Below are positions 4,275-5,724 of a DNA stretch of 64,000 nucleotides, piece after piece (positions within the stretch are counted from its first letter, which is position 1; the number at the start of each line of letters is the position of its first letter). The notes beneath the pieces were generated by a model, which saw nothing but the letters and a program-made list of their open reading frames with translations, searched no databases and was not told where the DNA came from. The position numbers were made by a program, and so were the translations under genes. The stretch is from Escherichia coli (lineage in GTDB: Bacteria > Pseudomonadota > Gammaproteobacteria > Enterobacterales > Enterobacteriaceae), in NCBI RefSeq assembly GCF_044647545.1, contig NZ_CP172818.1; one strand, written 5' to 3'.

Positions 4275-4286
4275 ATCTTGGTTCTG
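4275..4286. repeat. 12-bp target-site duplication flanking IS4 (left copy, ATCTTGGTTCTG)
   Basis: Identical 12-mer at 4275-4286 and 5713-5724, immediately outside the IS4 inverted repeats. Confidence 0.85.
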
Positions 4287-5712
4287 TAATGCCAGTCAGT
4301 TAAGCAACTGACTGGCTCTTTTTCGGGGCTGTGGGGTATTTCCAGGGCCTCTCCTTTACCACTCTCGGGAAGGCCCTTTCCCTTCTTGTCGGTAATTTCA
4401 CAAGTTGTCCCATACTTGCAAGATCGCGCATCAGCTCCGGTATACGTCCCGGTGAAGCGCCCTGCAATGTCATCAGCATTCTCATCACCATTCCGCATGA
4501 TTCTGAGAAACTCAGTTGATTCGGCCAGTAACCTTTCAGATGTTCCGCCATTTTAATCATCTGATATCTCACCAGATTATAAGCCAGTAAGACACCCCGC
4601 AGCTCTTGCTCCACAAGCTCCGGTTTTTTACTTCTCAGCGTCAGCCTGCTCAGTTGCATCGTCTGTTTTATCTCCCTGTATCCCAGTTCGATTTCCCAGC
4701 GATGACTGTACAGATCCGCCATTTCTCCTCCGGGGAAGCGCATGGCGTCCGTCATCGACGTCAGCAGATGGCAGACTTTTCCTTTGCGCGTCACGGTCAG
4801 CAGGCGGGCTGTCACTTCATTTCCCAGTCCCGGCCACTTTTTTCGTGCCTGCGGGCTGGTTTTCAGCTTCACCAGATGATCGCCTTTACCCAGTTTTCTG
4901 ATCTCTTCATATTGCGCTCCCTTTCTGAGAGGTATCATCCAGTGGCGGTGTTCTCCCGCCAGGCTCCAGGCATTTAACAGTCCCAGTGAGTAATAACCTT
5001 TATCCATTAACGTCAGAGTGTTATCGCCGGTTTGTTCTATAAGTTGCTCAGCAAGCTCATTTTCGCTGTTCTTCATCGTGCCGAAGGCTGCAGCCGTCAG
5101 CAGATGGCTGGTCAGTTCCATCTGGCAGACCATTTTGACCTGCGGGTAGAGCGCCGGGTTCCCGGCATGTGTCTGGCGGGGGAAGGCTGCATCGTTCTCT
5201 GGTGTATCCGGTGTGCGCCAGAACACACCATCGATGGCCAGCAGGGTCAGGCCGCACCAGTGCGGATGCGGCGTGGCGTTATGACAGAGCTGCGCTGTTT
5301 TCGTGAACACGCGGCGGACAGCCTCACTTCCCAGGCGCTGGCGGGCCTGAATAACGGCACTGGGGGCAACGAAGGGGCGATTGCCCGGCAGCATGATGTC
5401 CAGGCGATTCACAATCTGGTGAAGAGGTTCTTTACGCTCAAGCGCCATGCCAACAATACACCAGACCATCATTTCGAGGGGAAGACGGCGCTTGCGTAGC
5501 GTTACAGTACCTGATTCGGCAAGGCAACGAGAGATGAGTTCGGGGTCGAGGTAATCCCCCAGAGAAGTCAGTGGGTTACGCAGAGAATCGTAACGGGATA
5601 CCAGATCAAGAGCCTGTCCAATGTGCATAAAAAAATCCGGAAACAAGTGAGCGTTTCCGGATTCTTACACAGCCACTGGATCGGTCAACTGATCCTTAAC
5701 TGATCGGCATTA
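4287..5712 (-). mobile_element. IS4 insertion sequence (1426 bp) with terminal inverted repeats
   Basis: Ends taatgccagtcagttaag (4287..) and cttaactgatcggcatta (..5712) are inverted repeats; contains the insG transposase. Confidence 0.9.
4300..5628 (-). CDS. insG: IS4 transposase
   Basis: 442-aa product [31 protein letters not shown]... matches IS4 InsG; ORF track start at 5646, trimmed to the MHIGQ ATG. Confidence 0.9.
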
Positions 5713-5724
5713 ATCTTGGTTCTG
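5713..5724. repeat. 12-bp target-site duplication flanking IS4 (right copy)
   Basis: ATCTTGGTTCTG repeated directly after the IS4 end. Confidence 0.85.

Follow-up and report, generated by a model that had tools for sequence, protein, structure and literature searches.

The window analysed here, a stretch of 64,000 nucleotides of Escherichia coli DNA, is colinear with the leuX island KpLE2 of E. coli K-12 MG1655. From left to right it contains ahr, the tRNA-Leu gene (1512-1596), the degraded left end of the island, an IS4 element and the genes nanX and nanY (yjhBC). These are followed by IS911/IS30 remnants, the fec operon, the yjh genes and sgc. KpLE2 at leuX is known to carry fec and sgc (PMC3032704). 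The IS4 lies in intergenic DNA, with a degraded IS66/group II intron remnant on one side and the promoter of nanXY (yjhBC) on the other. The NanR operator of nanXY, GGTATAACAGGTATAAAGGTATA (operator definition as in PMC8012715), is found at 5821-5843, that is 109 bp past the end of the IS, and is left untouched by it. The transposase gene is transcribed away from nanX. An outward promoter supplied by IS4 toward nanX was considered and rejected, as a scan of 4100-5900 revealed no plus-strand promoter-like site. Gene disruption by IS4 was rejected as well: in strain 165, which has an empty site, the sole annotated open reading frame in the vicinity, a hypothetical one of 47 aa, stops 2 bp short of the target. 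The features of the locus are collected in Table 1.

Table 1. Coordinates of the IS4 element in the window and of the features in and around it
Feature	Position	Strand	Remarks
Complete IS4 element	4287..5712	- (transposase strand)	1426 bp; bounded by the inverted repeats and the duplication
Target-site duplication, left copy ATCTTGGTTCTG	4275..4286		exact, 12/12 against 5713-5724
Target-site duplication, right copy ATCTTGGTTCTG	5713..5724		exact, 12/12 against 4275-4286
IRR TAATGCCAGTCAGTTAAG, distal to the transposase start	4287..4304	+	16/18 complementary to 5695-5712
IRL TAATGCCGATCAGTTAAG (minus-strand reading), adjoins the transposase start	5695..5712	-	
Transposase gene insG	4300..5628	-	442 aa; ATG 5628-5626, stop 4302-4300
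Stable hairpin followed by U7 (5635-5629), directly upstream of the ATG	5632..5665	-	MFE -23.5 kcal/mol
Sigma-70-like promoter candidate: TTGACC, 16-nt spacer, TG-AAGAAT	5661..5688	-	consensus scan 9/12
11-bp hairpin plus TCTTTTT, overlapping IRR and the transposase stop codon	4291..4323	+	terminator scan
AAA arm of the target motif	4267..4269		
TTT arm of the target motif	5728..5730		

The original prediction described an IS4 of 1426 bp with terminal inverted repeats, the transposase gene insG and an identical 12-bp direct repeat on both sides. Length, inverted repeats, gene name and IS4 identity are all correct, and a recount found the direct repeat to be exact. The repeat cannot be extended in either direction, the preceding bases being C and A and the following bases T and G. 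At fixed positions a 12/12 match is expected by chance with a probability of 4^-12 (~6e-8). The ATCTTGGTTCTG repeat is a genuine target-site duplication, since natural empty sites show a single copy of the 12-mer. When the inverted repeat pattern was searched at zero mismatches, no further occurrence was found within the window.

The transposase is encoded by a single uninterrupted open reading frame on the minus strand, which fills the element without a frameshift, so that the prediction of a full-length insG product stands. Its length is 442 aa, or 448 aa with the alternative TTG start at 5646 chosen by PGAP, and both lengths of this exact protein occur in public records of E. coli. It matches the Pfam domains Nterm_IS4 (PF13006; 114 bits, cutoff 25) and DDE_Tnp_1 (108 bits) and scores 296 bits against the NCBIfam IS4 equivalog NF033592 (transpos_IS4_1; cutoff 115). 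We placed the catalytic residues by motif context within the DDE_Tnp_1 match at 125-351. With the numbering shifted by +1 to include Met1, D133, D209 and E314 form the DDE triad; 75 residues separate the first two and 104 the last two. The YREK signature, Y307-x2-R310-x3-E314-x6-K321, occupies residues 307-321 and includes the catalytic glutamate. A phmmer search of the PDB sequences returned zero solved structures related to InsG at E <= 1.

Members of the IS4 family are defined by a single open reading frame, the spacing D(60-110)D(100-150)E, the signature Y-(2)-R-(3)-E-(6)-K and a duplication close to one turn of the helix in length (De Palmenaer et al. 2008, PMC2266710). For the IS4 subgroup a length of 1400-1650 bp, ends of the type -AATR--------WTW---- and direct repeats of 10-13 bp are given (PMC2266710). 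The window element agrees with the family definition in its single open reading frame, its DDE spacing, its YREK signature and a duplication of about one helical turn (12 bp, checked against the empty site). Its size of 1426 bp, its ends and its 12-bp direct repeats are those of the subgroup: both ends read TAATG........TTA, and positions 2-5 and 14-16 fit the signature -AATR--------WTW, IRR included. The profiles point the same way, as Nterm_IS4 and the curated IS4 transposase model both score above their cutoffs.

IS4 and its chromosomal copy in K-12 were already familiar from the earliest work on this strain, and the copy is annotated in every K-12 record. In MG1655 the RefSeq label is insG, 'IS4-like element IS4 family transposase'. 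The MG1655 copy has the same length of 1426 bp, the same 18-bp inverted repeats, the same site and orientation and the same 12-bp duplication as the window copy. The two are identical at 1420/1426 nucleotides (99.6%) and 438/442 amino acids (99.1%), as expected for one and the same element. The six substitutions lead to four amino acid differences, at residues 115, 304, 326 and 344. Under the usual ISfinder convention the window copy would count as an isoform of IS4 and not as a new element. Strain AH50 also carries IS4 at the site shared by K-12 and the window, with the identical 12-bp duplication. Over its full length the window copy is 99.9% identical to copies annotated as 'IS4-like element IS4 family' in many E. 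coli. The commonest E. coli allele (WP_000483766.1), which is present in several copies in IAI39 and CE10, shares 1424/1426 nucleotides with the window copy and has the same ends and target pattern; the two differing nucleotides give rise to W115C and W344R in the window transposase. The number of IS4 copies is reported as one in K-12, one in B and zero in both W and Crooks (E. coli W genome paper, PMC3032704). The window element is thus a textbook IS4 at the textbook K-12 site and is in this respect already known and ordinary.

IS4 resembles IS10 (Tn10), IS50 (Tn5) and IS231A in having a DDE transposase encoded by a single open reading frame, the YREK signature, terminal inverted repeats and a duplication which spans roughly one turn of the helix (PMC2266710). 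These elements belong to other subgroups, however, and their ends start with CT or CW, in contrast to the TAATG of IS4. Their duplications are 9 bp for IS10, 8-9 bp for IS50 and 10-12 bp for IS231, against 11-14 bp for the IS4 insertions analysed here.

Two predicted hairpins lie inside the ends of the element. The hairpin directly upstream of the transposase start codon has a z score of -5.4, and 0/200 shuffled sequences fold as well. The second hairpin, at the other end (MFE -18.7 kcal/mol, z = -3.6), faces transcription which enters from the left flank. The Rfam search gave no known RNA family inside the window IS4. Close to the upstream hairpin is the promoter candidate, a consensus match only, with its -35 hexamer at 5688-5683, its -10 hexamer at 5666-5661 and an extended -10 TG. 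The transcription start predicted from it would lie within the 5' arm of this upstream hairpin (5632-5665). The native transposase mRNA, starting within this arm, would therefore lack the 5' hairpin. Transcripts which read through from outside would form the complete hairpin and would either be terminated or have their translation start occluded. For IS10 and IS50 comparable schemes against outside read-through transcription are known. By analogy, the terminator-like hairpins just inside the two ends probably shield the transposase gene against transcription from neighbouring DNA and hold activity down.

For the movement of the element we suggest the following steps, modelled on IS10/Tn10, IS50/Tn5 and IS231A. 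The transposase would bind both inverted repeats, bring them into a synapse and excise the element by cut-and-paste. It would then join the 3'-OH ends to the two target strands at points offset by roughly one turn of the helix (12 bp in this case), and the target-site duplication would result from repair of the gaps. We infer that the cut-and-paste hairpin chemistry, extrapolated from IS10, IS50 and IS231A, would also apply to IS4.

After removal of the IS and of one copy of the duplication, the target in the window reads AAA-N20-TTT. A literature search returned neither the published IS4 target consensus nor the original IS4 sequence papers. The window site fits AAA-N20-TTT, the target preference described for IS4. 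The target pattern was derived empirically from other copies of IS4, namely from 10 other loci which comprise eight intact insertions at seven distinct sites. At these eight insertions the duplications are 11, 12 or, at bamD, apparently 14 bp long. The general layout is an A-tract, 3-5 nt, a duplicated core of 11-14 bp, 3-4 nt and a T-tract. AAA and TTT arms 18-20 nt apart are found at seven of the eight other intact insertions (six of the seven distinct sites); at the ygeA site the T arm is weak. The targets often coincide with a terminator-like palindrome, for example downstream of typA, bamD and adhE. IS4 has entered the tdk-adhE terminator two or more times and in opposite orientations, with a 12-bp duplication in one case (L004/L005) and an 11-bp duplication in the other (L012/L016). 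IS4 therefore re-uses sites.

The remaining two of the 10 loci, and several public contigs, have flanks which do not match. Mismatched pairs were adhE on the left with bamD on the right, the nanX site on the left with bamD on the right, and IS4 abutting IS4. Such copies show recombination between IS4 elements, which the window copy has escaped.

How widespread is the insertion? We searched 5426 complete E. coli genomes with probes of 100 nt and counted the genomes in which the probe is intact. The left junction is present in 968/5426 genomes and the right junction in 970/5426. The reconstructed empty site is present in 184/5426, and about 84% of the genomes which bear the locus are occupied by IS4. 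In E. coli IAI39, which we read directly, the same flanks surround a single ATCTTGGTTCTG and no IS. The search for an empty target in related genomes, as proposed with the original prediction, was thus successful. IS4 as such occurs in 2686/5426 complete genomes, with a median of one place per genome and up to 32. The insertion is a common polymorphism rather than a recent event confined to the genome of the window. It is mostly inherited with the locus, because the same junctions are found in ~970/5426 complete E. coli genomes.

It had further been claimed that the element represents a simple transposition event with no subsequent rearrangement. Structurally this is supported, as the flanks rejoin into the natural empty site. 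The claim does not extend to allelic recombination, however: the intact target-site duplication rules out inversion or deletion mediated by the IS but not allelic recombination. Indeed, compared with K-12 the window is a mosaic. From 5285 to ~9250, a stretch which takes in the right end of the IS and the next 3.5 kb, the identity is 100%, whereas the left flank (2816-4250) is 2.7% diverged. Over 2816-4274 the left flank shares 99.0% identity with MS1494, MS1737, GF131 and YP3, against 97.7% with every other genome. Three of these four were checked: MS1494, GF131 and YP3 have empty sites with the variant target ATCTTGGTTGTG, whereas both copies in the window have C. The fourth, MS1737, is a near-identical record. 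Five positions separate five sampled occupied genomes from four sampled empty ones. At the four of these positions which lie in the left flank, the window has the 'empty' allele, and at the one on the right it has the 'occupied' allele (G5926). A block of junk sequence adjoins the left flank, and we considered sequencing errors as the source of the differences. This was rejected in part, as 12 of the ~20 'private' variants are common to the MS1494-type genomes; ~7 left-flank variants remain apparently private to the window.

Plain vertical inheritance is an incomplete fit with a left flank of a rare empty-site type and a right flank identical to K-12. The simplest account of the discordant flanks is an allelic exchange by homologous recombination whose crossover lay in or beside the IS. 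Gene conversion among IS4 copies may have contributed.

An alternative is that IS4 inserted separately into the same preferred 12-bp target of a different haplotype, which would be a case of target-site homoplasy. This would be in line with the strong site specificity of IS4 and with the repeated hits at the tdk-adhE terminator. The left flank is closest to the MS1494/MS1737/GF131/YP3 haplotype, which is known here only with empty sites, and has the 'empty' allele at all four separating positions. In addition, the IS4 allele of the window is that of the adhE and bamD sites: it was seen at the nanX site neither among the five occupied genomes sampled nor in the retrieved public contigs, and the retrieved public places of the exact transposase are adhE or bamD sites, except for one chimera of nanX-site left and bamD right flanks. 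Nevertheless, we consider a second insertion improbable. The element has the same orientation and the same two junctions as in ~970 genomes, and the right flank not only equals K-12 for 3.5 kb but also carries the 'occupied' marker. IAI39 has 15 places with IS4 and yet an empty site, so the target is not an irresistible hot spot, and the empty sites of the MS1494 type differ from the window copies in the target itself. Finally, allelic recombination at or near the IS together with IS4 gene conversion explains the same data. If an independent second insertion were true, the occupancy of the canonical K-12 site would be polyphyletic. Taken more broadly, the switch of haplotype at IS4 could stem from an independent insertion into the same 12 bp in the same orientation or from a role of the IS as a preferred crossover point in the leuX island, a proposal which we regard as unlikely.

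Is the element still able to move? Its description as potentially active appears reasonable, with indirect support from the intact reading frame, motifs and ends. Copies of 1426 bp with zero nucleotide differences from the window IS4 are found at the tdk-adhE site with an 11-bp duplication of their own (L016, L018, L025), and they sit in several independent assemblies. This allele has therefore moved, or was moved, recently. The adhE and bamD sites also harbour copies with the transposase protein of the window. Of 758 new IS insertions in mutation-accumulation lines derived from K-12, 8 came from the single IS4 copy, which occupies the same site as the window element (PMC5009759). Another, smaller mutation-accumulation study recorded no IS4 events in 80,500 generations (PMC3871371), so that the activity of IS4 is low at best.

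It could be argued that the element is structurally intact yet has lost its function wholly or almost wholly and survives as a fixed relic which no longer moves. Residence at one site in ~18% of the sequenced genomes, the replacement of two tryptophans relative to the commonest allele (W115C, W344R) and the one mutation-accumulation experiment without IS4 events would agree with this idea. It is difficult to reconcile, however, with the zero-difference copies at tdk-adhE, which several independent assemblies show with an 11-bp duplication of their own, with the eight new insertions produced by the K-12 copy at the same site, and with the unchanged catalytic D, D and E, YREK residues and inverted repeats. 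A dead relic is therefore unlikely in our view, and the window IS4 is probably still competent for transposition at low frequency.

An assembly artefact, in which contigs were misjoined through the repeated IS4, is very improbable: three G/C homopolymer junk blocks in the window (2213-2812, ~42890-43530 and ~62400-63070) and the different haplotype affinities of the two flanks could be taken as signs of it, but a false join would as a rule leave the element between unrelated flanks (the chimeric copies L017 and L022 are of this kind), whereas here both flanks have the 12-mer and together restore the empty site which occurs naturally at this very locus, and the IS4 itself contains zero indels and zero ambiguities.

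In summary, we are confident that the window carries a complete IS4 (IS4 family and subgroup, insG) at its K-12 position in KpLE2, mostly inherited with the locus and probably transposition-competent at low frequency. The finding has little significance beyond correct annotation. What it adds is context: the insertion is a widespread polymorphism which spares the NanR operator, the targets of IS4 are typically terminator-like sequences between an A-tract and a T-tract, and the haplotype of the flanks switches at the element.

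The two sides of the IS4 element, which lies at the same nanX site as in K-12 MG1655, belong to different haplotypes, and the switch falls at the position of the element itself (left flank, window 2816-4274; right flank, 5725-9250). The left flank shares 99.0% identity with four genomes (MS1494, MS1737, GF131 and YP3) and 97.7% with all others, and the three of these four that were checked (MS1494, GF131 and YP3) all carry the empty IS4 site. About seven variants of the left flank are found in the window alone (at 3719, 3926, 4041 and 4202-4210). On the right-hand side the flank agrees with K-12 at 100% of positions. 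Further to the right, patches within 9250-12000, which overlaps IS911, IS30 and ISEc52 remnants, and within 38000-42879 diverge from K-12 by 1-3%, and between them the two sequences are 100% identical over long distances (12000-20000 and 22000-36000). This alternation of divergent patches and identical stretches marks the leuX island in the window as a recombination mosaic.

Directly to the left of IS4, a group II intron match adjoins the remnant of an IS66-family transposase, annotated in K-12 as a 'transposase domain-containing protein' pseudogene. Together they are degraded mobile-element debris. On the other side, the element ends 109 bp from the NanR operator of nanXY (yjhBC); the operator is undamaged by the insertion and all sequence farther upstream has been separated off by it. 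A likeness to the IS4 terminal repeat was also found in the stretch which maps to K-12 fecC. Matches of 16/18 are expected by chance about 0.01 times per window, and the likeness is probably coincidental.

Features located in the window besides IS4 itself
Feature	Window position	Strand	Evidence
Group II intron D1-D4-4 match with the adjoining IS66-family transposase remnant	3388-3527; 3489-3698	-; +	intron: Rfam match, 66 bits (gathering score 49)
NanR operator of nanXY (yjhBC)	5821-5843		perfect (GGTATA)3
IS4 terminal repeat-like sequence TAATGCCGAGCAGTGAAG	15315-15332	+	16/18 match

Three blocks of the window have an unusual composition. The first (2213-2812, about 600 bp) has 75-80% G+C, is almost devoid of T and abounds in C and G homopolymers (A108, C283, G183, T26). 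At exactly this place K-12 has 3.5 kb that hold the remaining part of intB (integrase), IS2 and the greater part of the yjgX pseudogene, and the block looks like sequencing or assembly junk rather than biology. A second G/C homopolymer junk block (about 42890-43530, 74% G+C) replaces the 9.2-kb fimB-fimH region of K-12; on the K-12 locus (L015) window 42879 corresponds to 20495 and window 43857 to 11257. In the third junk block (about 62400-63070) the G+C content is 86%, the G skew is strong and poly-G runs extend beyond 100 nt, a pattern typically left by a no-signal or poly-G sequencing artefact.

At other loci most of the sampled IS4 targets have the appearance of a terminator hairpin with A-tract and T-tract. 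The intergenic terminator hairpin between tdk and adhE holds IS4 in one orientation in some strains and in the reverse orientation in others. The duplication is 12 bp, CCCCAGAAGGGA, at two loci (L004/L005) and 11 bp, CCCTTCTGGGG, at two others (L012/L016); these are independent IS4 hits on a single site. Downstream of bamD in FDAARGOS_497 (L008) the apparent target duplication of 14 bp, CAGCTCAAGGGCTG, exceeds the 10-13 bp listed for direct repeats of the IS4 subgroup (PMC2266710). Finally, the flanks do not match around five IS4 copies of other strains (L017, L020, L022, L007 and L010). Among the pairings are an adhE left flank with a bamD right flank and a nanX-site left flank with a bamD right flank, and in ST648 the IS4 adjoins a second, truncated IS4. 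These copies point to homologous recombination between IS4 elements or to nested insertion.
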